DNA of 50,408 nucleotides from an uncultured Gammaproteobacteria bacterium (GTDB taxonomy: Bacteria; Patescibacteriota; Patescibacteriia; UBA9934; GWF2-40-263), in assembly GCA_964499955.1 (NCBI GenBank), contig CAZCMI010000002.1, positions 17,078 to 67,485 on the forward strand, in the 5' to 3' direction. A program made the translations under genes and the position numbers. Under the pieces are notes generated by a model that was given only the letters and a program-made list of their open reading frames with translations, had not been told where the DNA came from and made no database searches. This document shows, piece by piece, positions 11,356 to 43,440 of this stretch (the first letter of the stretch is position 1; each line of letters opens with the position of its first letter).

Positions 11356-11389
11356 AAAAACACCCTCGTAATAGGCGGGGGTGTTTTAT
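11356..11389 (+). terminator. Intrinsic terminator after the PBP gene
   Basis: AAAAACACCC ... GGGGTGTTTT hairpin plus a T-run. Confidence 0.6.
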
Positions 11390-11943
11390 TGCTCCACCAC
11401 TTCGGGATACGCGTCCGGCTGGTGGAAGTCGGGGCGTTCGCCGGGCACGGGGAAGGCGGCCAGGTATTCCCCTTCCGCCGCCACGAAGGCGTTGATGGCC
11501 CGCACGGGCCGCGGAACCATCGCGGAAGGAATGCGGATGACGGACGACCACCAGCCACCGTCCGGTTCTTCTTCCCGCACGTGGGCCAATTCCGGCGCGA
11601 AGGTCAGATATTCATCCGACCGCTGGCGGATTCCATCGAAGCCCAGTACGAGAAAATGCCCGCCTGCGCCCAATTCCACCTCCAAATATTGATGCCCAGG
11701 GCCAACGACGAATAGTTCGGCTACATCATATTCCCACAGGTTGCCCACAGGGTTATCCACAGGTGCATTCGGGATGCGTTCCTGCGGGCGCACAGGCATG
11801 CGCGCCCGGATTTCCCAATCCCCGTTTTCCAACGTCCGAACGGCCACGTCCGCGCGCAAACGCGGGTTCGGGTTGGCCGATCCGTCCCACCGGTCGCGCA
11901 CAGGAAGCGTCAGCCACGCGGGGGCTTTGGGAACGCGGAGCAT
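11386..11943 (-). CDS. Hypothetical protein, CBM9-like/DOMON-like pattern
   Basis: Trimmed to MLRVPK (ATG at 11943), 5 nt after the dnaN stop. NLWEYDVAELFVVGPGHQYLEVEL and ERPDFHQPDAY resemble the carbohydrate-binding family 9-like domain pattern. Confidence 0.5.
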   Translation of the reverse strand: MLRVPKAPAWLTLPVRDRWDGSANPNPRLRADVAVRTLENGDWEIRARMPVRPQERIPNAPVDNPVGNLWEYDVAELFVVGPGHQYLEVELGAGGHFLVLGFDGIRQRSDEYLTFAPELAHVREEEPDGGWWSSVIRIPSAMVPRPVRAINAFVAAEGEYLAAFPVPGERPDFHQPDAYPEVVEQ

Positions 11944-11948
11944 ATCCG

Positions 11949-13085
11949 TTACGCCTTGATCGGCATGATGATGTACAGGTACCCCGTCCCGCCGTCTTGG
12001 GCGCGCAAAATGCACGGGTTGGCAGCGTCGATCATCTGCACCTGCACGCGCTCCGTCCCCACGGCGGAGAGGCCGTCGAGCAGGTAGCGGTAGTTCAAGG
12101 TGACCGTGTTTTGCGGGCCGGACACCTCGGCCGCGCACGACGCCGTGTTTTCGCCGCGGTCGGCGTCCACGGACTTCACTTCCAATTTCTTTTCGTCCGG
12201 GTGGAAAGCGAGCGTGACGTCGAACAGCCCGGCGCGGGAGAACAAACTGGCCGTTTTCACCGCCTTGGTGAAGTCGTCGCGGTCCACGACGGCATTGGTT
12301 TGGAATTGCTGCGGGATGATCTGGCGGTAGTCGGGATAATTCCCCTCGATCATGCGCGAAACGATTTCCACGGAACCGTAGGAGAAAACGACCTGGCCCT
12401 CGGACAGCCCGAGCGAAACGGTGGTTGGTGCCTCCACGGAATCGCGGAACACGGACAACACGCGATTCACCTCCGCCAGCGTTTTGGCCGGGATGATGAC
12501 GCGCTGTTCTTCCACTGACTGGCCCGGCAGGTCGATGACGCCTTCCGCCAGGCGATAGGAGTCCGTGGCGGCCAGCACCGCTTCCCCGCCGCCGTCTTTC
12601 TTCCTGAATTCGACGGAGACGCCGGTGAGCTCCGGACGCGCCTCGCTGGTCGAAACCGCGAACAGGACGCGCGAGAGCGTCTCCCGGAAGCCCTCAACGG
12701 GCAACTGGTACACGCGGTCGCCCTGGATTTTCGGCACCAGCGGGAAATCCGCCGCGGACAAGCCGTTGATCTTCGTGCGGTTTCCGCCGCAGGACGCCGC
12801 CAAAGACGCCGCGTCGGCCGAAACGGACACATGTTCGTTCGGTAACAAGGCGACGTAATCGTGGAACAGGCGCGCCGGCACAGTGAATTCTCCCGGTTCG
12901 TCCACTTTTCCGCGCACCACGCAGGAGGTGGCGATTTCCAAGTTCGTGGTGGTCAGACTGATGGTCCCGCCTTCCGCACGGATGAGCACGTTCTGCAAGA
13001 TGGGAAGATTTACGTTTTTCCCCGTTACGTGACTCGCAATGGAAAGTCCCTGGGAAAGATTGTCACGCGTGCACGAGAACTTCAT
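11949..13085 (-). CDS. dnaN: DNA polymerase III beta sliding clamp
   Basis: 378 aa. MKFSCTRDNLSQGLSIASHV...LPILQNVLI is the canonical DnaN N-terminus. It sits directly downstream of dnaA. Confidence 0.92.
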   Translation of the reverse strand: MKFSCTRDNLSQGLSIASHVTGKNVNLPILQNVLIRAEGGTISLTTTNLEIATSCVVRGKVDEPGEFTVPARLFHDYVALLPNEHVSVSADAASLAASCGGNRTKINGLSAADFPLVPKIQGDRVYQLPVEGFRETLSRVLFAVSTSEARPELTGVSVEFRKKDGGGEAVLAATDSYRLAEGVIDLPGQSVEEQRVIIPAKTLAEVNRVLSVFRDSVEAPTTVSLGLSEGQVVFSYGSVEIVSRMIEGNYPDYRQIIPQQFQTNAVVDRDDFTKAVKTASLFSRAGLFDVTLAFHPDEKKLEVKSVDADRGENTASCAAEVSGPQNTVTLNYRYLLDGLSAVGTERVQVQMIDAANPCILRAQDGGTGYLYIIMPIKA

Positions 13086-13352
13086 ATTCAGAAAGGGGAC
13101 TTTAAATAAGAAGTAGAAGCAGTAGGGCGGTGGACGGAGTGGATGAACGGGAGAATGTCGCTCAACCTCGCGTCGTTTTCCTGTGGGCTCTTGTGGACGC
13201 CCTTGGGATGAATCCGTGGATGAAATGTGGACGGCTGGGGTAGGACGTTTCGGCGGCCGAAGTCGTCCACAGGATTGTCCACGTTTCAGCGGCGGTTATC
13301 CGTTCGTTGTCCACGGCTTGTCCCATGTGGAAGGGTTGTGCCTTCCTTGTGG
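13086..13352. other. Candidate oriC: DnaA-box cluster in the dnaA-dnaN intergenic region
   Basis: Ten 9-mers contain the TCCAC core. TGTGGA orientation: 13129, 13138, 13192, 13215, 13226, 13326. TCCACA orientation: 13263, 13275, 13307, plus TTATCCGTT at 13296. An AT-rich tract lies at 13081-13125. Confidence 0.6.
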
Positions 13353-14882
13353 CTAAACCGTGTACAGCCGCTGGCGGATCAGTTCCACGTCATGCTGGAG
13401 CTGTTCGTCCTGCGTGAGGCAGGAGCAAATCTTCCCGTAGGCGTGCATGGCCGTGGTGTGGTCGCGCCCGCCGAGCTCCGCCCCGATGGACGGATAACTC
13501 GACTTCATCTCCTCCCGCATGAGGTACATGATGATTTGCCGCGGGAAAGCGTAGCGCTTTTCCCGGCTCTTCCCGACCAGGTCCTCTATTTGCAGGTCGT
13601 AGTGTTCCGCCACAGTTTGGATGAGCTGCCGCGCGGTGACGGTGCGTTTGGTGTGCGCCGGCTGGAAGCTGGAAAGGATGGGTTTGACCGTATCCAGGGT
13701 GGCCGGGATGTTCTTGAAGTGGTGGAAGGCGATGACCTTGTTGAGCGCGCCTTCCAATTCCCGGATGTTGCTCTGCACCGACGTGGCGACGTGGTGCAGG
13801 ATGTCCCGCGCCATCGGGAAGGATTTTTCCCGGCATTTCGCCTCCAGGATGGCCACGCGGGTTTCGAAGTCCGGCGTGCCGATGTCGGCCATCATGCCGC
13901 TTTCGAAGCGGGAGATGAGGCGGCTTTCCAGGAACGGAATGGCCTTGGGCGGCCGGTCCGCCGTGATGACGAGCTGTTTGTTGTTTTGGTGCAGCTGGTT
14001 GAAGGTGTGGAAGAACTCCTCCTGCGTGCCTTCCTTTCCGGTGAGGAATTGGATGTCGTCCACGAGCAGCAGGTCCACGCTGCGGTAGTAGTTGCGGAAG
14101 TCCCGACCCTGGCCCGTGCGAACCGCGTTGATGAAGTCCGTGGTGAAGCGCTCGCTGGTGACGTAGAGCACGCGGGTGTGCCCGGCGCGGCGCAGGATTT
14201 CGTTGCCGACGGCCTGCAATAGGTGGGTTTTGCCCAAGCCCACGCCGCCGTAGATAAACAGGGGGTTGTAGACGCCGCCGGGTTGGGATGCCACGGCCTG
14301 GGCGGCCGCGTGGGCCAGCTCGTTTTGCTTGCCGACCACGTAGCTGCCGAACGCGTACTTGGCGTTCAGAGTGAATTCCCCGAGGCGGGAGCCGGGCGGC
14401 GGGGCCGCGGGCGGGCTTGCGGGAGCGGGGGCGGCGGCGTTTTGGACGGACGACGGGTTGGTGGGGGCGGATGCGGGCTGGCTGGGTGCCCGTTCCTGTT
14501 CCACGATAACCGTTACGTGCCCCGCGGCGGGGCTTGCCGACGCCGGTTCGTACACGGGCACCGGTTCGGGCGGGGTTTCCGGCAGGACGGTGGCCGGTTC
14601 CGCCTCAACCATGGCGACGGGGGCGGGCGGTTGGCGCGTTTCCACGCGGTAGGTGATGGTCCGGACGTTCTGCTGCGCGTGGGTTTGTAAGGATTGCAGG
14701 ATATCCTTGTGGTATTTCTTTTCCAACCACGCCTTGGTGAACAGGTTGGGAACACCGATAACGACATCGCCGTCGCCGAAGGACGCGATGAAGGTATTGC
14801 GGAACCAGGTCGTAAAATTCGCCTTGCTCAGCGAAAGTTCCAACCCGCCCAGCACCGCCAGCCACAGTTCATGGGTGTTCAT
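13353..14882 (-). CDS. dnaA: Chromosomal replication initiator DnaA
   Basis: AAA+ motifs GGVGLGKTHLL and LLVDDIQFL, and a C-terminal DNA-binding helix region. It has a long P/A-rich domain II. The start could be 14882 (MNTHELW) or 14915. Confidence 0.92.
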   Translation of the reverse strand: MNTHELWLAVLGGLELSLSKANFTTWFRNTFIASFGDGDVVIGVPNLFTKAWLEKKYHKDILQSLQTHAQQNVRTITYRVETRQPPAPVAMVEAEPATVLPETPPEPVPVYEPASASPAAGHVTVIVEQERAPSQPASAPTNPSSVQNAAAPAPASPPAAPPPGSRLGEFTLNAKYAFGSYVVGKQNELAHAAAQAVASQPGGVYNPLFIYGGVGLGKTHLLQAVGNEILRRAGHTRVLYVTSERFTTDFINAVRTGQGRDFRNYYRSVDLLLVDDIQFLTGKEGTQEEFFHTFNQLHQNNKQLVITADRPPKAIPFLESRLISRFESGMMADIGTPDFETRVAILEAKCREKSFPMARDILHHVATSVQSNIRELEGALNKVIAFHHFKNIPATLDTVKPILSSFQPAHTKRTVTARQLIQTVAEHYDLQIEDLVGKSREKRYAFPRQIIMYLMREEMKSSYPSIGAELGGRDHTTAMHAYGKICSCLTQDEQLQHDVELIRQRLYTV

Positions 14883-14952
14883 ACCGCGGACGACGTCAAA
14901 AAAGAGATGCCCCATTCCCGGAAAACGGGAAGGAACGATTGGCGATGGCGCT

Positions 14953-15067: not shown

Positions 15068-15223
15068 ATGTCCAAGCGCACCTATCAACCAAAAAAGGCC
15101 CGCCGCGCCAAGGTGCACGGGTTCCGCGTCCGTTCCCGTACCAAGAACGGCCAGACCGTGCTCAAGCGCCGCCGCGTGAAGGGACGCACCCGTGTGTCCG
15201 TCCAAGCCAAGAAATTGAAGTAA
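15068..15223 (+). CDS. rpmH: 50S ribosomal protein L34
   Basis: Not in the track (51 aa). My translation is [51 protein letters not shown]. It has the classic position upstream of rnpA. Confidence 0.9.
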
Positions 15224-15271
15224 GAAGGAAACGCGCGTGAAAACGCGCGTTTTGTTCATGAACCGCCCCGT

Positions 15272-15613
15272 ATGCTCGCCCCCGCCCATCGTTTGCGAAA
15301 AGAAACGGACATCCGCACCCTTTTTTCCAAGGGCAAGGGCGCGTTTGATCCAACCTGCGGTGTGAAATTCCGCGCCAACGGCCTGGACGTGTCCCGGTTC
15401 GCCGTGGTGGTGGGGTCCGCCGTATCCAAAGAGGCCGTGATGCGCAATCGCGTCCGCCGCCGGTTGCGCGAAATCGTCCGGGCGCGTTTGCCGCGCATCA
15501 AGCCGGGGTTCGACGTGGCCTTGATGGCCCGCCCGCCCGCGGCGCGCGCGTCGTTCGCCGCCTTGGAGGCCGCGGTGGAGCGTTCCTTGCGGAAAGCCGG
15601 GCTGTTGGTATGA
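15272..15613 (+). CDS. rnpA: RNase P protein component
   Basis: 113 aa, basic, with the VSKEAVMRNRVRRRLRE motif. It follows rpmH. Confidence 0.85.
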   Translation: MLAPAHRLRKETDIRTLFSKGKGAFDPTCGVKFRANGLDVSRFAVVVGSAVSKEAVMRNRVRRRLREIVRARLPRIKPGFDVALMARPPAARASFAALEAAVERSLRKAGLLV

Positions 15614-22814: not shown

Positions 22815-23213
22815 TTATACTTCCTGAGTGAAGGTCTTTTTGCATTCGATGCAGGAGCCGGAGGTCGGCCGGGCGCGCATGCGGCGTTCGTCGATGTCTT
22901 GTTTGCAGTAGGTGCAGACGCCGTAGGTGCCCTTTTTGATGGCTTCCAGGGCTTTTTCCACGTCGCGCAGGGCGCGGGACAGTTCCGTTTCCACGGACAG
23001 GCTGTCGCTGAAGGCGGCGACTTCCGCCGCGCTTTCATCTTCGCTTTCTCCCGCATGGTCGTCCGCGGGGCCGTGGGAAGACGCTTGGCGGTGGCTCAGG
23101 CGGGACAGTTCCTCCTCCAGGCGCGTTTTCTCGGTCTGCAGGCGGGTTTCCATTTCTTGGACGAAGGAAGGAGCAAGGGCCATATCGTCTGAACGATGAA
23201 TGAATGTTGCCAA
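22815..23213 (-). CDS. DksA/TraR-family C4 zinc-finger protein
   Basis: Coiled-coil N-terminal part, then CTYC-x17-CIEC. The start is 23213 or 23183. Confidence 0.75.
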   Translation of the reverse strand: MATFIHRSDDMALAPSFVQEMETRLQTEKTRLEEELSRLSHRQASSHGPADDHAGESEDESAAEVAAFSDSLSVETELSRALRDVEKALEAIKKGTYGVCTYCKQDIDERRMRARPTSGSCIECKKTFTQEV

Positions 23214-23234
23214 AGAATGTACCAGGGATTTTCT

Positions 23235-23613
23235 AAAAAAACAACGGACCGATAGGCCCTACAAGTATAAGTGCAGGGACCGTAATCGGTCCGGAAGGAA
23301 CAAGATGACGCCAACTCGCGTTGGCGCAGGGATACACGGAAAACGGCCAAAGGCGTTTCACGCATGTCTCTGCGCCACACAGCGAATATGAAGCGTCTCA
23401 TCTTGCAAGATGACACGCCTTCTCTACCGATTCATCGGTCTTATCCGCGGACGTTCCCGGAGGAACGCTATGGTGCGGACGGGCCCAGCCACGCGCCGGA
23501 CTAGGACGACGTATGGCAGAACAGTAGAGAAGCGGGATATCCCTCGAAAGCGTGGGGTGCCTTCGGGGGAACTCTCTGTGGTGTCTTGGAAAGAACGTCG
23601 CACCTCTAAGGTA
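23235..23613 (-). ncRNA. Candidate ~375-nt structured RNA or long leader of unknown class
   Basis: No credible ORF. It has a promoter upstream (23621-23649). On the minus strand, perfect hairpins carry stable loops: 23452-23467 (UCCG loop), 23426-23439, 23394-23417 and 23309-23326 (GCGA loop). It ends in the nested hairpin 23246-23292 plus a U7 run. Confidence 0.45.
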
Positions 23614-23620
23614 CACAAAC

Positions 23621-23649
23621 AGTTTACCCGTTTTTGGTCATTTTGTCAA
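23621..23649 (-). promoter_or_regulatory. Sigma70-like promoter for the candidate RNA
   Basis: The minus strand reads TTGACA (23649-23644), a 17-nt spacer, then TAAACT (23626-23621). Confidence 0.5.
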
Positions 23650-23731: not shown

Positions 23732-23771
23732 TTATCCACATTTCCACCGTTTTTCACACAACTTATCCACA
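23732..23771 (+). promoter_or_regulatory. Two perfect DnaA boxes (TTATCCACA), same orientation, 31 bp apart
   Basis: Exact 9-mers at 23732-23740 and 23763-23771. They lie next to an AT-rich tract (23620-23730). Confidence 0.7.
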
Positions 23772-23774
23772 GTT

Positions 23775-25175
23775 CTAATAACACAGGCGAATTGTCGTGG
23801 AAAACGGGGAATTCTTGAGGGAACCTTCGCTGAACGTGAGGGAAAGGTCACGCAGGACATTTGGTTGGTGGAACGTGGCGGATGAGGCGGCGAATAAATC
23901 CCGCATGGACGCATAGGCCGCGCCTTGGAAGCAGACGCTGGCCTTAGTCGGTTCCCCGTCCGGTTCTTCTTCGATGCCAAGCCAGGCAAACGCCAGGCGT
24001 TCCCGGTTCGTCAGGGCGAAGGACTGGTCTTTTTCCGCCAGAACGGCCACGTGCCCGTTCGGAGAACGTACATGCCGCACCCGTCCACCGGCCAACAGAC
24101 GCTCTTCCACGGTGACGGAGGCGGGGTCCGCGACGATTTCATCTGCCTGCGTTTGGTCCGGCAGAGTCCACGGGCGTAGCGTAGGTGCGTAAAAGGCCGC
24201 GGAAGCCGTGAGTAACCGCAAACGGTCTTCAGGCGACAACCCGTCGTTTTCCGTGGAAAGAACGTACCCGAACCCTTCCGATTCCGTCTCGTCGGGTTCC
24301 CGTGCAAGCAACAGGGTGCTAAAGGTGTTCGCGACCGCAGGTGCGTGGATTTGGCGGAGCAAGGTATCTATGTGCGCGGACGCGCCGAGCGAGGCTTCTT
24401 GTTCTTCCAGACCGTTGTTTGGCCACACTGGTGTAGACATATGGAGAACCGTTCCGGCGGGAAAGCGTTTCCATGGGGACGCCGGCAGGGGCAGACGCGG
24501 CAGGCGGATCGCCCAGCCGTCCGCATCCGCCGTCACCACGCCTGTTTTCCACGATCCGTCCGGTTTCCCTTCCCATTGTACGTAGGCCGTGCCCACGCGG
24601 GGGAAAAACAATCCCCAGGCCCGCCGAACCCAGGGCTGCGGCAGGCGAACGGCGGTGAGCGGCCGGGAACGGTCCGTCAGGACCACCAGGCCGGAGCTGG
24701 CGGACGTAGCCGTGATGCCATGGGTGTCCAACAGGTCTTCCAAGGAGGGCGGTTCGTAATTGTCTTCATCTGCGGGCGTTTCCTCCGTCGGGGTCTGCCA
24801 AAACAGAAGTCCTTCCGGCACAGCAAGCGTTTCCGAGCGGATGGCGGCGGACCGGCGGCCGTCGGCGTCGAAAAACACGGCGAGGTCCCCGTTCGCGTAC
24901 GGGGCGAGTTCCCGCAGGGTCAGCCCGCGGTCGGACACGGCCGTCAGGTGCCCGACGGCGTCCAGGACGCGTTCCCAGCCGTTTGCGCCCGGATGCAGGC
25001 GCAGGATGGCGACCGTGCCCTCCGGCACGGCGGAACCGACGTCCGTACGTTCAAACCAGGCCGTCGTGCCCGCATAGGCGGCCGCCAAGCAGGCGATCAG
25101 CCCCAAAAACCACGCAACCCGCCGGGCGGGGCGGGTTGCGGAGGTTCTTCCCAAGGGGATGTTCAGACGCGACAT
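23775..25175 (-). CDS. Hypothetical membrane-anchored protein (466 aa)
   Basis: The ATG at 25175 lies 4 nt after the pnp stop. N-terminal TM helix VAWFLGLIACLAAAYAG. The remainder is soluble with no motif I recognise. Confidence 0.6.
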   Translation of the reverse strand: MSRLNIPLGRTSATRPARRVAWFLGLIACLAAAYAGTTAWFERTDVGSAVPEGTVAILRLHPGANGWERVLDAVGHLTAVSDRGLTLRELAPYANGDLAVFFDADGRRSAAIRSETLAVPEGLLFWQTPTEETPADEDNYEPPSLEDLLDTHGITATSASSGLVVLTDRSRPLTAVRLPQPWVRRAWGLFFPRVGTAYVQWEGKPDGSWKTGVVTADADGWAIRLPRLPLPASPWKRFPAGTVLHMSTPVWPNNGLEEQEASLGASAHIDTLLRQIHAPAVANTFSTLLLAREPDETESEGFGYVLSTENDGLSPEDRLRLLTASAAFYAPTLRPWTLPDQTQADEIVADPASVTVEERLLAGGRVRHVRSPNGHVAVLAEKDQSFALTNRERLAFAWLGIEEEPDGEPTKASVCFQGAAYASMRDLFAASSATFHQPNVLRDLSLTFSEGSLKNSPFSTTIRLCY

Positions 25176-25179
25176 GCGA

Positions 25180-27417
25180 TTATCGGCGGGGCGGGCGCGG
25201 ACCGGACGGACGGGGGCCGCGCGGGCCGCCGGCACCCATGCTGGGGGCGGCGGCGGTGTTGGCGGCGGTTTGTTCCGGGTACACGTTGCCTTCCGCCTGC
25301 TTCATGGACAAGTTGATGCGCCCGAGGTCGTCGATTTCCTTCACGACCACGGACACCTCGTCGCCGACCTTCACGATATCACGCACGGCATTGAGCCGCC
25401 ACGGGGCCATTTCGCTGATATGCACGAGGCCTTCCTGCTTCGGGAGGATTTCCACGAAGGCGCCGAAATCCATCAGGCGGGTGACCTTGCCGCGGAAGGT
25501 TTCGCCGGCCATGACTTCGCGGGTCAGGTTCTTCACCCATTCCTCGGCCTTTTTGGCGCCTTCGGCGTTCACGGAGGTGATCATCACCAGGCCGTCGTCC
25601 TCGATGTCGATGGTCTGCACGCCGGTGACGGCGATGATTTCGTTGATGGTCTTGCCGCCCGGGCCGATGACGTCGCCGATGCGTTCCGGGTTGATGCGCA
25701 GGGTGATGATGCGCGGGGCGTACGGGGACAGGTCCGGGCGCGGCGCGGCGATGGTCGCCTGCATGACGTCGAGGACCTGCAGACGCCCTTCATGGGCCTG
25801 CGCGAGCGTTTGTTCAATCACGTCCAGGCCGACGCCGTGGGTTTTCGTGTCCATCTGCACGGCGGTGATGCCCGCGCGGCTGCCGGCGATCTTGAAGTCC
25901 ATGCCGCCCAAGCCGTCTTCCAGGTCCTGCAGGTCGGTGATGACCTGCCAGCGGCCGTTGCCATCCGTCGCCATACCCATGGCCATGCCGGCCACCGGGG
26001 CCTTGATGGGCACGCCCGCGTCCATGAGCGCCAGGGTGGAGCCGCAGGTGGACGCCATGGAGCTGGAGCCGTTGCTGCCGAACACCTCGGACACGACGCG
26101 GATGGTGTACGGGAAGGATTCCTTATCCGGCATCATGGGCGAAAGGGCCTTTTCGGCCAGCGCGCCGTGGCCGATTTCACGGCGGCCGGGGCCGCGCATG
26201 GGCTTCACTTCGCCCACGGAGAACGGCGGGAAGTTATAGTGGTGGAAGTAGCGCTTGCTGCCCACGGTTTCCATGTTGTCGAGCGTCTGGGCGTCGCCGG
26301 GGGCGCCCAAGGTGGCGATGGACAGCACCTGGGTTTCGCCGCGCATGAAGTGGCCGGAGCCGTGCACGCGCGGGACCTGGGCCACCTCCGCCAACAACGG
26401 GCGGATGTCCGTAAGGCCGCGGCCGTCCACGCGGCGGCCGTTGTCGAGGATTTCGCGGGAAATGGTCTGTTCGATGACGTCGGTCACGATGGCCGTGCCG
26501 AATTTCACGTCGTCCGCTTCCACGCCCTGTTCCTTCAAGAAGGCCTCCGTGCGGCGCTTTACCTCGCGCTTTTGCTCAGCGCGTTCCACCTTGGTGGCGC
26601 GCGGAACGCCGAAGAACAATTCCTGGGTCTGCGCGGCGATGAACGGACGGGCGATGGCTTCCACTTCCGCGCGGCGCGCGGCGATGGCGGCGGCCTGTTC
26701 CGTCTTCGGCGTGAGCATGTCGCGCTTGGGCTTGCCCGCGGCGGCGCGTACTTCTTCCATCAAACGCAACGGCTCGGCCATGTGGGACAGGCCGAAGCGG
26801 AAGGCGTCCAGCACGGTGGATTCCGGGGCCTCGTTGGCGCCCGCCTCGACCATGATCACGCGTTCCTCCGTACCGGCGAAGGCCAGATCCAGCACGGATT
26901 TGGCGCGGGCGTCATAGGTGGGGTTGATGACCCATTCCCCGCCGATCTGGCCCACGCGGATGTCGGCGATGGGGCCGTTCCACGGAATGTCGCTCAGGTG
27001 CAGCGCACAGCTGGCGGCGACCAGCCCCGGCACGTCCGGGTCGTTTTCGCCGTCGAAGGACAGGCAGGTGACCACGACCTGCACTTCGTTGCGCATGCGG
27101 CCGTCGAACAGCGGGCGGATGGCCCGGTCGATGTAGCGGGCGGTCAAAATCGCCTCGTCGCTTGGGCGGCCTTCCTTCTTGATGAAGCGGCTGCCTTTGA
27201 TGCGTCCGGCGGCGTAGAGTTTTTCCTCGAACTCCACCATCAACGGGAAGAAGTCGATGCCGTCGCGCGTGGTTTCGCTCATGACGGCGGTGGCCAGTAC
27301 CACGGTGTCGCCGTACTGCACCACACAGGCGCCGTTGGCCTGGTTGGCGTACTTGCCCGTCTGGATGCGGAGCGCCTTGCCGCCCCACTGCGTTTCAAAC
27401 GTCTTGATGTCCGGCAT
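25180..27417 (-). CDS. pnp: Polyribonucleotide nucleotidyltransferase (PNPase)
   Basis: Track ORF trimmed to MPDIKTFETQWGGK (ATG at 27417). Two RNase PH domains, a KH domain (GPGGKTINEI) and an S1 domain, followed by a short R/G/P-rich tail. Confidence 0.92.
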   Translation of the reverse strand: MPDIKTFETQWGGKALRIQTGKYANQANGACVVQYGDTVVLATAVMSETTRDGIDFFPLMVEFEEKLYAAGRIKGSRFIKKEGRPSDEAILTARYIDRAIRPLFDGRMRNEVQVVVTCLSFDGENDPDVPGLVAASCALHLSDIPWNGPIADIRVGQIGGEWVINPTYDARAKSVLDLAFAGTEERVIMVEAGANEAPESTVLDAFRFGLSHMAEPLRLMEEVRAAAGKPKRDMLTPKTEQAAAIAARRAEVEAIARPFIAAQTQELFFGVPRATKVERAEQKREVKRRTEAFLKEQGVEADDVKFGTAIVTDVIEQTISREILDNGRRVDGRGLTDIRPLLAEVAQVPRVHGSGHFMRGETQVLSIATLGAPGDAQTLDNMETVGSKRYFHHYNFPPFSVGEVKPMRGPGRREIGHGALAEKALSPMMPDKESFPYTIRVVSEVFGSNGSSSMASTCGSTLALMDAGVPIKAPVAGMAMGMATDGNGRWQVITDLQDLEDGLGGMDFKIAGSRAGITAVQMDTKTHGVGLDVIEQTLAQAHEGRLQVLDVMQATIAAPRPDLSPYAPRIITLRINPERIGDVIGPGGKTINEIIAVTGVQTIDIEDDGLVMITSVNAEGAKKAEEWVKNLTREVMAGETFRGKVTRLMDFGAFVEILPKQEGLVHISEMAPWRLNAVRDIVKVGDEVSVVVKEIDDLGRINLSMKQAEGNVYPEQTAANTAAAPSMGAGGPRGPRPSGPRPPRR

Positions 27418-27504
27418 AGGTTGGATGTGGGCGTTCCGACGAAGCCTGGGATCTCGATGCGTGATCGAAATCGGCGGTCTCGCCGGGACGCGGGGTGAAT
27501 AATT

Positions 27505-27546
27505 CGCAAAGAACCCCCGGCCCACGTAAAAATGGGCCAGGGGTCC
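27505..27546 (-). terminator. rpsO-pnp intergenic hairpin (terminator/attenuator or processing site)
   Basis: 12-bp stem with one mismatch (27513-27524 pairs with 27533-27544), followed on the minus strand by TTCTTT. Confidence 0.6.
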
Positions 27547-27551
27547 GATGC

Positions 27552-27815
27552 TTACTTCAGGCCCAGGGATTCCTTCAGGGCCTTGAACGCCTTGGCGTCT
27601 TCGCGTTCGAGGTACTTCAGCAGGCGGCGGCGCTCGTTGACCTTCTTGATGAGGCCGCGGCGGGACGAGAAGTCCTTCTTGTGCATCTTCAGGTGCTCGG
27701 TGAGCTCCGCGACTTCCGCGGTGAGGATGGCGATCTGCACCTGCGGCGAACCCGTGTCCGACGCGTGGGTGCGGTACTTCTCGATGATCTTCAGCTTCTT
27801 CTTGTTGTCCAGCAT
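27552..27815 (-). CDS. rpsO: 30S ribosomal protein S15
   Basis: 87 aa with GSPQVQIAILT and HLKMHKKDFSSRRGL. Confidence 0.92.
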   Translation of the reverse strand: MLDNKKKLKIIEKYRTHASDTGSPQVQIAILTAEVAELTEHLKMHKKDFSSRRGLIKKVNERRRLLKYLEREDAKAFKALKESLGLK

Positions 27816-27895
27816 AGGTATCGGTTAACGCGCGCGTCCGAGCGACGGGAGCTGATCCCCGCGCCCAGGCGTGCGCCGATTGAATGACGCGGCCC

Positions 27896-27924
27896 ACTTT
27901 ACGTGCCCGCGAGCCGTTCGTCAA
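27896..27924 (-). promoter_or_regulatory. rpsO promoter
   Basis: The minus strand reads TTGACG (27924-27919), a 17-nt spacer, then TAAAGT (27901-27896). This leaves a leader of about 75 nt. Confidence 0.5.
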
Positions 27925-41986: not shown

Positions 41987-42346
41987 CCGTTTCGTCTTAT
42001 ACAGATTCGGCGTGTGCATGTTTTTTATTTTGATGCGTGAAACCAATTCAGGAGTTAATCGGCAGCAGCGGGAGAGCGTTTCATTTCGGTTGCGTAATCG
42101 AGGGTGGGATGAAAGGAACACAGGATCAGTTGTTTATAGGCGCTCATCTGTACTTGATTTCTTCAGACCAAATTTACCCTTCGAATTGATCATTGCGTAT
42201 CAGCATGAACAGTTGTTGGAAAATTCCCCAGACTGATCTCTAGCCGTGAAGACATGTTGGTATTCTCATTCTGATTATTCATTGAACTTGCCGCGTTATT
42301 TTGTGTTCCACATGTTAGGAACGAGTTCCGAAAATTTCATGAAAAT

Positions 42347-42364
42347 GTTTCATGTGAAACATTA
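42347..42364. repeat. Copy 2 of the 18-nt motif (GTTTCATGTGAAACATTA)
   Basis: It sits inside the AT-rich non-coding region and is preceded by the related palindrome TTTCATGAAA (42334-42343). Confidence 0.6.
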
Positions 42365-42447
42365 AATATAATTAATTTGTCTACGCCAGTTTAGACAAAG
42401 TTAAAATTTTGATCAAACAAAATTGAACACATCGTTTAACCACCATT

Positions 42448-42456
42448 TTATCCACA
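42448..42456 (+). promoter_or_regulatory. Perfect DnaA box TTATCCACA upstream of the surface-locus promoter
   Basis: Exact 9-mer, about 25 nt upstream of the putative -35. Confidence 0.5.
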
Positions 42457-42478
42457 TAGTGGGGATTGCCTGTTTCGC

Positions 42479-42507
42479 TTCAGGAACCTTCTTGCACATG
42501 GTATGAT
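42479..42507 (+). promoter_or_regulatory. Extended -10 promoter of the surface locus
   Basis: TTCAGG, a 17-nt spacer, then TGgTATGAT (TG at 42499-42500, TATGAT at 42502-42507). It is followed by an AGGAGG SD (42519-42524) and the ATG at 42529. Confidence 0.5.
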
Positions 42508-42528
42508 GTGGGGTGAATAGGAGGACCT

Positions 42529-43440
42529 ATGCGCGTTGTTGCTCTCATTTGCGCGTTTGTAGCCGGTTTGTTCGGCTGGGTTTCGTTTGGGCGGGCGGAA
42601 ATGAACTCCGCCAACTACATGATTCGGTGGGACAGCATCGGATCCGGAGGAGGCGACACAGCCGCGTCCGCAAGCTTTCTTCTGCGGGACACCGTGGGGA
42701 ATCTTGGCGTGGGGGCGGGCGCGTCCGAGACGTATTTCCTTCAATCCGGGTACCGAGCAGGAGTGCTAGATCAGTTCGTTTCGTTTGATGTTTTCGCGCA
42801 AGTGAGCGCGTCGGCCGTGGCGGCGACCGCGCGGACGGGTGAGACAGTCACGGTCGCCTCCGCCGCGGGGTTCGGCGTCGGGGACTATCTCGCGCTGGTG
42901 CAGGATCGCGGTGCGTCCCAGGTTTCCGCCGTCGGGCGCATCGTTTCCATTGTGGGCAACCAGGTGACGGTGGACCAGTTTGCAGACAACGGCACGTCGC
43001 CGGTGATCGACGGAACAAACGATTATGCGTATCGCCTTGCGGGCGTGGCGGCGAATTTGGGAACGCTGAGCACGTCGGAGGTCGCGACGGCCCTGATCGG
43101 TTTTGAGGTGACGGCCGACGTGGACGGCGGATATACGGTTTTCGTGGCGGAAGACGGCGGTTTGCGCAGCGGGCCGGAGGAAATCAACAAGGTGTCGGAC
43201 GGCGCCGTGACGGCCGGATCGGAAGAATATGGCGGCCAGTCGTCGGATACGGCGGTCACCGGCTCCACGTTCGGCACGCAAGACACGGCGTTCACGATGG
43301 TACTTCAACCGATCGTTGAATACGGGTCGAACGCGTTCCAGCGCCGCGATTTTCTGACGTTGAAAGCCGCGATTTCGTCCTCAACCCCGAATGCCACGTA
43401 CAGCCACGTCCTGTCCATGATTTTTGTGCCGAATTTCTGA
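42529..43440 (+). CDS. Secreted protein (303 aa), first gene of the surface locus
   Basis: Signal peptide MRVVALICAFVAGLFGWVSFGRA. Duplicated S-x-x-Y/F-x-L...G motifs (SANYMIRWDSIGSGGG, SASFLLRDTVGNLG, SETYFLQSGY). The mature part is Cys-free and G/T/S/V-rich. Confidence 0.7.
   Translation: MRVVALICAFVAGLFGWVSFGRAEMNSANYMIRWDSIGSGGGDTAASASFLLRDTVGNLGVGAGASETYFLQSGYRAGVLDQFVSFDVFAQVSASAVAATARTGETVTVASAAGFGVGDYLALVQDRGASQVSAVGRIVSIVGNQVTVDQFADNGTSPVIDGTNDYAYRLAGVAANLGTLSTSEVATALIGFEVTADVDGGYTVFVAEDGGLRSGPEEINKVSDGAVTAGSEEYGGQSSDTAVTGSTFGTQDTAFTMVLQPIVEYGSNAFQRRDFLTLKAAISSSTPNATYSHVLSMIFVPNF

Follow-up and report, generated by a model that had tools for sequence, protein, structure and literature searches.

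The 50,408-nt stretch of contig CAZCMI010000002.1 analyzed here (hereafter the window) has a GC content of about 65% and contains, between a dksA-like gene and a gene for a hypothetical protein, a gap of some 560 bp. The dksA-like gene (22815–23183, minus strand), recognized by library matches and by comparison with relatives, encodes a DksA/TraR-family C4 zinc-finger protein of 122 amino acids, YteA/DksA-like in type, and is followed downstream by lspA and then by a gene for a YifB/ComM-type ATPase. An earlier note on this DNA had placed a highly structured RNA of about 375 nt on the minus strand of the gap, between the pnp operon and the dksA-like gene. The position upstream of dksA is correct, but the immediate upstream neighbor is the gene for a 486-amino-acid hypothetical protein (23775–25235) with no Pfam or NCBIfam match, and pnp (25180–27924) lies beyond it. 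The gap probably holds a stand-alone gene for an undescribed, multi-domain structured non-coding RNA (ncRNA) of about 380 nt that belongs to the Uhrbacteria and Magasanikbacteria, lineages of the Candidate Phyla Radiation (CPR).

The RNA gene is predicted at 23235–23614 on the minus strand, on the grounds of fold energy, of homologs aligned in three alignments (A1, A2, and A5) and of covariation. Its promoter (23621–23649, minus strand) is made up of a −35 element TTGACA (23649–23644), a 17-nt spacer and a −10 element TAAACT (23626–23621). These are the elements that the earlier note had read, and they form the best match of a consensus promoter scan, which returned two promoter-like sites in the region where 0.4 would be expected. 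A promoter of the form TTGAC-N16-19-(TG)nTAnnnT occupies the same position in all homologs. The 5′ start near 23614 is deduced from the −10 element, and the 3′ end is placed within a U7 tract (23241–23235) that closes a nested intrinsic terminator (23235–23292, minus strand). Here GGACCGAU (23292–23285) pairs with AUCGGUCC (23253–23246) around an inner hairpin, and the stem is followed by GUUG and the U7 tract. The terminator, likewise noticed earlier and said to end at 23235, has a hairpin free energy of −28.7 kcal/mol, and a hairpin of −10 kcal/mol or lower with a U-run stands at the 3′ end of the RNA in 22 of 24 homologs. The distance of about 22 nt that had been given between the terminator and the start of dksA needs revision: comparison with relatives puts the start codon at ATG 23183 and not at TTG 23213, so that a spacer of about 52 nt separates the two and holds a promoter. 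As a whole, the minus strand of a 391-nt stretch folds at −167.7 kcal/mol compared with −125.5 ± 5.4 kcal/mol in dinucleotide shuffles (z = −7.76), and the opposite strand has a fold z of −6.49.

The absence of a credible open reading frame (ORF) from the gap, also claimed earlier, is borne out by a Pfam search of the ORFs inside these 560 bp, which gave zero matches. The indels among homologs are not multiples of three. In two relatives (L001 and L002) a short ORF follows a GGGAGG that resembles a Shine-Dalgarno (SD) sequence, but as read from the alignment the invariant block of the RNA falls in different reading frames in the two, and most homologs have no start codon there. With no Pfam matches and inconsistent frames over the invariant block, a protein-coding reading of the gap was rejected. 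The sequence has its own promoter, its own terminator, no coding signal and a conserved structure, the marks of an independent ncRNA gene. With a predicted promoter and terminator to itself, the RNA forms a separate transcription unit.

A profile search of the first relatives revealed that the entire intergenic region is conserved upstream of dksA-like genes. The locus was then described as a pattern of two invariant blocks, CCCCACG...CTYTACTGTTCTG, which in 185,579 species genomes matched 18 Uhrbacteria-type loci and, by chance, 14 other sites; true matches were told from chance ones by the presence of DnaA boxes and of a GGTAGAG block at a fixed distance. The metagenome matches comprised 18 loci, 17 of them family members and one (L053) a chance match. 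All family loci from the genomes (18) and the metagenomes (17) occur once per contig and in identical context. In viral contigs a looser pattern gave 120 chance matches, and a profile search confirmed none of them. Removal of near-duplicates left 24 full-length homologs, and about 30 non-redundant homologs are available overall.

Four helices proposed by RNAalifold (P1, P2, P3, and P5) were evaluated on A2, a plain MAFFT alignment of the 24 homologs. Across 59 base pairs, 93.6% of cells hold a standard pair, compared with 38–54% when the 3′ partner is slid by one to three columns. Pairs changed on both sides number 30 vs. 19.4 in shuffles, and cells with a double change number 138 vs. 42.9 ± 6.3, a value reached in none of 500 shuffles. 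The paired columns contain 169 G-U or U-G combinations and 35 A-C or C-A, a ratio of about five to one. This excess identifies the minus strand of the window as the one that folds, which makes the element an RNA rather than a palindrome in the DNA. A model-based alignment of 30 sequences (A5), which leans towards the covariance model, gives 94.8% paired cells against 30–46% with slid partners; the MAFFT-based result is free of such bias. The comparison, a check that the earlier note had called for, marks the region as a conserved, strand-specific, multi-helix RNA with at least four covariation-supported helices (P1, P2, P3, and P5) and additional variable hairpins.

The family extends beyond the sequences that match the pattern. 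A covariance model of the domain formed by P2, the linker and P3 (R1) adds four Uhrbacteria variants (L007, L063, L064, and L076; E < 1e-15), in which P2 positions that had seemed invariant change in a compensatory manner, and one member from Magasanikbacteria (L006; 30 bits, E = 3e-4). Further compensatory versions of P2 were found by eye in L069 (UCUUACUGUUC/GAGUGGUAAGA), L073 (CCUUCUAACUGUUC/GAAUGGUUGGGAGG) and L072 (CUUCUUUACU/AGUAGAGAAG). The diverged regions L066–L073, L078 and others have, again by eye, the same architecture with an A-rich linker.

The anatomy of the RNA can be followed along the minus strand, to which all positions in this and the next paragraph refer. A short variable hairpin separates the start near 23614 from a conserved single-stranded 5′ motif, GUUCUUUCC (23588–23596), which is near-invariant in A2 and recurs in the diverged relatives L005, L006, L008, L067, and L078. 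Helix P1 (23534–23576; 23576–23562 with 23548–23534), with 94.6% of cells paired and six double-change pairs, has a 5′ strand that is SD-like (GGGAGG) in most relatives and encloses a hairpin presenting a CCCCA pentaloop, part of the invariant CCCCACG (23551–23557). The loop stays constant while its stem covaries freely: in the 24 homologs the same pentaloop sits on 22 distinct stems of 5–11 bp. A second small hairpin close to it within P1 is frequent in relatives. The long-range helix P2, which closes the P3 domain, pairs GCUUCUCUACUGUUC (23519–23533), after which comes the invariant junction UG, with GAAUCGGUAGAGAAG (23419–23433). It is made of the invariant blocks CUCUACUGUUC and GAAU-GGUAGAG, with 94.5% of cells paired and double changes in eight of 14 pairs in A5. 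Between P2 and P3 the alignments place an unstructured linker of about 30 nt (23487–23516), A/C-rich in low-GC relatives (AAAACAAAAACAAAA..., where it reads AAAACAAAAACAAAAGCAAAC) and GC-richer in the window; what is conserved in it is length, position and absence of structure, not sequence. Helix P3 itself (23437–23485; 23485–23475 with 23448–23437) has 95% of cells paired and six double-change pairs, and carries a variable inner hairpin, CGUUCC-UCCG-GGAACG (23467–23452), with double changes in all five pairs.

P4 (23393–23418), seen in both fold and alignments, is a hairpin that keeps its position and varies in sequence among homologs; in the window it is a 10-bp stem with a UGCA loop, which the earlier note had counted among its perfect hairpins but which runs from 23418 to 23393 and has one mismatch. 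Helix P5 (23322–23377; 23377–23361 with 23338–23322), in which UGGCGCAG... pairs with ...CUGCGCCA, has 21 pairs, 15 of them with double changes, an internal extension and an inner hairpin, and its family consensus is GGGCRUCG-A-GUUUU / AAAAC-C-CGAYGCCC. P6 (23308–23327), read directly as GCGCCAAC-GCGA-GUUGGCGU, has a GNRA loop, and across the family it is a small hairpin that often has such a loop. In the window, 6 nt belong both to its 5′ strand and to the 3′ strand of P5, so that P5 and P6 may be alternatives to each other. The other hairpins listed in the earlier note, at 23467–23452, 23439–23426 (ACCGA-UGAA-UCGGU) and 23326–23309 (CGCCAAC-GCGA-GUUGGCG), can all be read directly in the sequence, but the second competes with the conserved P2 and P3 and probably lies outside the consensus fold, being at best an alternative pairing. 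The consensus fold lines up local domains one after another and has one mid-range helix, but none that joins the 5′ and 3′ ends. Its invariant single-stranded elements are held in fixed positions: the GUUCUUUCC tail, the CCCCA pentaloop, the UACUGUUCUG strand with its junction, and the 30-nt linker. When all alignment columns were screened against each other for pseudoknot partners of the CCCCA loop or 5′ tail, nothing better than noisy candidates of low complexity came up, and ideas of a triplex, an SD/anti-SD interaction or a tRNA mimic were dropped by eye, as no consistent complementarity was seen.

The surroundings of the RNA are as stable as its fold. In all Uhrbacteria-type loci the order is pnp, hypothetical gene, DnaA boxes, RNA, dksA-like gene, lspA, YifB/ComM ATPase gene, M23 peptidase gene and rnhB. 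Relatives of the DksA-like protein all come from Patescibacteria (CPR) genome bins, mostly labeled Candidatus Uhrbacteria. A profile scan for more distant DksA-like proteins (41–58% identical; L066–L073, L078, and others) found 520–880 nt of non-coding DNA alongside their genes, with one or more DnaA boxes 540–740 nt upstream of dksA, in bins labeled Uhrbacteria, Magasanikbacteria or unnamed Patescibacteria. Still more distant CPR lineages in the same scan (Moraniibacteriota, Parcubacteria and Paceibacterota) have short gaps and no such RNA. In L006 the upstream gene encodes an AP endonuclease and the order of DnaA boxes, RNA and dksA is maintained, so the link between the RNA and dksA outlasts that between the RNA and pnp. 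L065 lacks the RNA: there the DnaA boxes and dksA come straight after pnp. No relationship could be recognized between the 486-amino-acid protein of the window and the products of the upstream genes of L005 and L008.

Several further features of these loci were observed. In alignment A3, the C4 zinc-finger cysteines are missing from the DksA-like proteins of CPR lineages without the RNA (L009, L010, and L012, labeled Moraniibacteriota and Saccharibacteria), and the proteins encoded next to the RNA retain CxxC...CxxC; the correlation is imperfect, as L065 has a close DksA-like gene and no RNA. The PNPase ORF of the window is 914 amino acids long and has an N-terminal extension of about 170 amino acids ahead of the first RNase PH domain. 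In relatives (L016, L025, L030, L033, L035, L038, and others) the matches to residues ~17–125 and 170–885 of this protein lie ~830–1,230 nt apart instead of ~150, which suggests a variable insertion, an extra domain or an intervening element in pnp. An inverted repeat some 130 nt long and almost perfect (1817–1948) separates the terminator of the RNA from the dksA promoter in L006 and attracts many spurious miRNA-precursor matches in Rfam. Many relatives (e.g., L016, ~570–540 on the minus strand) have a palindrome with a T-run (AAAAATATCGC...GCGATATTTTT) after the DnaA boxes and ahead of the RNA promoter; it probably terminates the upstream hypothetical gene and is not conserved in the window. 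Finally, many third-party annotation (TPA) bins labeled “uncultured Gammaproteobacteria” (L004, L005, L008, L024, L025, and others) carry this CPR-specific locus and its synteny, and are evidently mislabeled Patescibacteria.

Upstream of the RNA promoter lie two elements that were absent from the earlier note's list. A motif scan finds a perfect DnaA box at 23763–23771 (TTATCCACA on the plus strand, TGTGGATAA along the RNA strand) and a second perfect box in the same orientation at 23732–23740, 31 bp or three helical turns away. The pair lies ~110–150 bp upstream of the −35 element, and its 31-bp spacing is exact in 37 related loci. The window holds four perfect TTATCCACA sites against 0.09 expected. 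In most relatives the pair is followed by a third, weaker box-like element in inverted orientation, TTGAACACA, which may be a weak inverted DnaA box. Conservation of the boxes argues for DnaA binding, and they may regulate the RNA promoter, regulate the dksA operon, or titrate DnaA. The remaining perfect boxes of the window lie elsewhere: one at 42448–42456, 17 nt from a TTGAACACA element, in AT-rich intergenic DNA (42300–42530) upstream of an ORF at 42529–43440, and a fourth at 11753–11761 inside an ORF (11386–12138) without Pfam match, just downstream of dnaN. The spacer between dnaA (13353–14915) and dnaN (11949–13085) is a candidate origin (13086–13352). It contains at least eight TGTGGAC/GTCCACA boxes, a GC cluster, a CTACTGCTTCTACTTCTT run that resembles DnaA-trios, and an AT-rich end at dnaN, and cumulative GC skew is lowest near 12 kb. 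It looks like a chromosomal origin of the Bacillus type. With this canonical box cluster, trio-like run and AT-rich end in place, and the skew minimum near 12 kb, an origin at 23.7 kb was rejected; the RNA locus is some 10 kb from the origin and not the origin itself.

Does the locus, then, act as RNA at all, and if so, as an RNA already known under another name? The two perfect, phased DnaA boxes, set in an AT-rich stretch (38% GC vs. ~65%) within about 10 kb of the origin, and the survival of boxes without the RNA in L065, would suit an element working as DNA, either an accessory to the origin or a site that titrates DnaA. The compensatory changes and the five-fold excess of G-U over A-C fit one transcribed strand only, a promoter and an intrinsic terminator are conserved with them, and origin and skew minimum lie elsewhere, so that this explanation is scarcely credible. 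A highly divergent RNase P RNA, transfer-messenger RNA (tmRNA), 6S RNA or signal recognition particle (SRP) RNA beyond the reach of current models is hardly easier to believe. The earlier note had offered RNase P RNA and tmRNA on grounds of size, and the RNA resembles them in length, multi-domain fold and apparent single copy per genome. None of the four RNAs was found by Rfam within the 50-kb window, and rnpA, which encodes the RNase P protein, was read together with rpmH (L34) at 15068–15600 on the plus strand, divergent upstream of dnaA; the organism thus uses an RNA-based RNase P, and the RNA for it must exist in the genome, presumably outside the window. At gathering thresholds, however, Rfam 15 matches in the window are limited to five tRNAs, and 14 related loci give none; at E ≤ 10 the RNA regions of the window, L001, L016, and L006 return scattered sub-threshold hairpin and miRNA noise and no recurring family (RF00010, RF00011, and the tmRNA models included). 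ARAGORN detects no tmRNA. A regex search of both strands agrees with the earlier note that the universal motifs are missing, as it finds no RNase P P4 core (GNAAAGUCC, ACAGAA..GGCUUA; CR-I/CR-V), no T-loop GGUUCGA and no SRP domain IV sequence; a tRNA-like end or domain is also absent. The A/C-rich segment, considered as a tmRNA tag frame, has a stop codon at its end in some homologs only, and the frames differ. Unlike RNase P RNA, tmRNA, and 6S RNA, the RNA has no helix between its ends, and its family occurs in only one part of the CPR. The idea of a divergent RNase P RNA or tmRNA was rejected, and of the options raised earlier an undescribed RNA, with covariation and no known family, fits best.

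Would an RNA in this position not more simply be a leader of the genes that follow? As a long cis-acting leader of the dksA-like/lspA/comM operon, riboswitch-like or an attenuator sensing a protein or a tRNA, it would sense a signal through its 5′ domains; with P5 closed, the next segment would form the base of the terminator and transcription would stop, and with P5 open, P6 would form and polymerase would read through into dksA. Several points weigh against a stand-alone gene and mostly towards such a leader. The RNA is always upstream of the dksA-like operon and on the same strand, the classic leader position, and it stays next to the dksA-like gene even where the upstream gene is another (L006 and L008). 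The 3′ strand of P5 can pair alternatively in P6 in most homologs, and the P6 segment can form the base of the terminator, which gives the look of an expression platform. Both ends of the ~380-nt transcript are inferred from the sequence. In L065 the boxes ahead of dksA persist where the RNA is gone, and may serve the dksA operon or titration of DnaA. Lastly, the trans-acting partner considered below is a guess from gene neighborhood and RNA layout. The overlap of the P5 3′ strand with P6, counted from 3 nt upwards, amounts to 4–6 nt in 22 of 24 homologs (21 of 24 in the comparison with shuffles, which give 14.3 on average and 21 at most), the segment common to both has changed in L007 from GCCC to GUCUC and both possible partners, as read from the sequence, have changed along, and in L016-type and L001-type homologs the 3′ strand of P6 doubles as the basal 5′ strand of the terminator. 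A long leader RNA also stands in this neighborhood in B. subtilis, where the order is ileS (with its T-box), ylyA, lspA. The overlap statistic is, however, barely above chance for GC-rich 4-mers. L031 and L060 have a weak competitor hairpin, and the topology of the pairings is not the same in every subgroup and is different in the window. P5 is also much more stable than P6, which would make termination the default state. Known attenuating leaders (riboswitches and T-box leaders) resemble this RNA in lying upstream of a protein-coding operon on the same strand and in their intrinsic terminator, for which competing pairings are plausible here too. The three genes downstream have no ligand obviously in common, and they are not related to aminoacyl-tRNA or metabolites. 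No known aptamer was detected in the Rfam scans at E ≤ 10, and the RNA has neither T-box sequence nor specifier architecture, with no match to RF00230 at that threshold in the four homologs scanned. What ranks an independent RNA gene above the leader is a separate dksA promoter after the terminator. A leader would be expected to have no promoter between its terminator and dksA, and one is predicted here, an extended −10 element TGGTACATT (23216–23224, minus strand) of the conserved form TGnTAnnnT; a TTGTTT 17 nt upstream of it overlaps the terminator U-tract. In every Uhrbacteria homolog TGnTAnnnT (e.g., TGCTATTCT) follows the RNA terminator and precedes the start codon of the dksA-like gene, and the separate promoter is conserved in all lineages examined. 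In diverged loci, several of them of Magasanikbacteria type, it is fuller and near the sigma-70-type consensus (TTGACC-17-TATAAT in L067, TTGACT...TATAAT in L078, TTGACA...TACAAT in L006, and TTGACA...TATACT in L071), and in L006 about 190 nt, with the long inverted repeat, separate it from the RNA terminator. An independent promoter makes control by read-through unnecessary. The leader, which the earlier note had listed as an option for dksA-lspA, keeps its fitting position and is a serious rival, but is weakened by this promoter and on balance seems doubtful.

Promoters in these genomes rely on the extended −10 element TGnTAnnnT, and in the window and in L001–L060 that of the dksA-like gene starts within or just after the terminator U-tract.

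An independent gene for a structured RNA, the reading that we favor, invites comparison with known large RNAs. OLE, raiA, ROOL, GOLLD, and HEARO-type RNAs likewise measure several hundred nucleotides and combine multiple covarying helices and GNRA tetraloops with loops and junctions that do not vary; they are restricted to particular lineages, and they too were found by comparative genomics and had no function evident from sequence. The present RNA differs from them in that it has no sequence or structure match in Rfam 15 and that its host clade is the CPR, and, set against OLE-type RNAs, in a fixed chromosomal context near the origin with DnaA boxes ahead, neither phage-borne nor tRNA-rich. 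Full-text searches of the literature on structured and non-coding RNAs of Patescibacteria, Uhrbacteria, and CPR bacteria found no description of it. It is a new family, unclassifiable with current libraries. The 6S and Ms1 RNAs offer a different parallel, being stand-alone RNAs with their own promoter and terminator, as this RNA, which is probably also abundant, appears to be, and with a large single strand flanked by helices (here P2, linker, P3); in addition, the gene here is linked to one for an RNA-polymerase-binding factor. Compared with 6S RNA it is about twice as long, has no closing stem at its ends and no match to RF00013, and its local domains are branched; where 6S RNA has a two-sided central bubble, this RNA has a strongly asymmetric loop formed by P2, linker and P3 (~35–45 nt on one side vs. 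3–7 nt on the other). The likeness therefore points to a possible mode of action, not to membership.

How might such an RNA act? The terminated RNA would work in trans as a folded scaffold, presenting its 5′ tail, CCCCA loop, P2 junction and linker to a protein or RNA partner, and occupancy of the upstream boxes by DnaA would set the RNA level and tie expression of the locus to the state of replication initiation. A partner in the transcription machinery, with RNA polymerase contacted much as it is by 6S or Ms1 RNA, is suggested by the persistent linkage of the RNA to the gene for a DksA/YteA-like factor and by the layout of P2, single strand and P3; by analogy it can be proposed only speculatively, and we think it improbable. 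The RNA might, for example, sequester RNA polymerase or work with the adjacent DksA-like factor, and in a variant of this scheme its conditional termination would also gate read-through into the dksA-lspA operon. The full proposal, namely a new class of large RNA (ribonucleoprotein scaffold or ribozyme) that is specific to Uhrbacteria and Magasanikbacteria, set by DnaA and acting on the transcription or replication machinery, is similarly a long shot.

Genomes of CPR bacteria (Patescibacteria) are about 1 Mb in size and contain very little non-coding DNA, and to our knowledge few lineage-specific ncRNAs are on record for them. Large structured RNAs are seldom discovered, and earlier examples proved to be ribozymes, scaffolds of ribonucleoproteins or regulators of core machinery. 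Strong selection on structure, a near-consensus promoter and invariant loops in so small a genome make it likely that this RNA is important. The family alignment and model allow it to be annotated in CPR genomes, where it is at present an unexplained gap of 560 bp, and linkage supplies concrete candidate partners in DnaA, RNA polymerase, and the DksA-like protein. If the proposed mode of action is true, the RNA would couple the status of replication initiation to global gene expression in these minimal-genome episymbionts.

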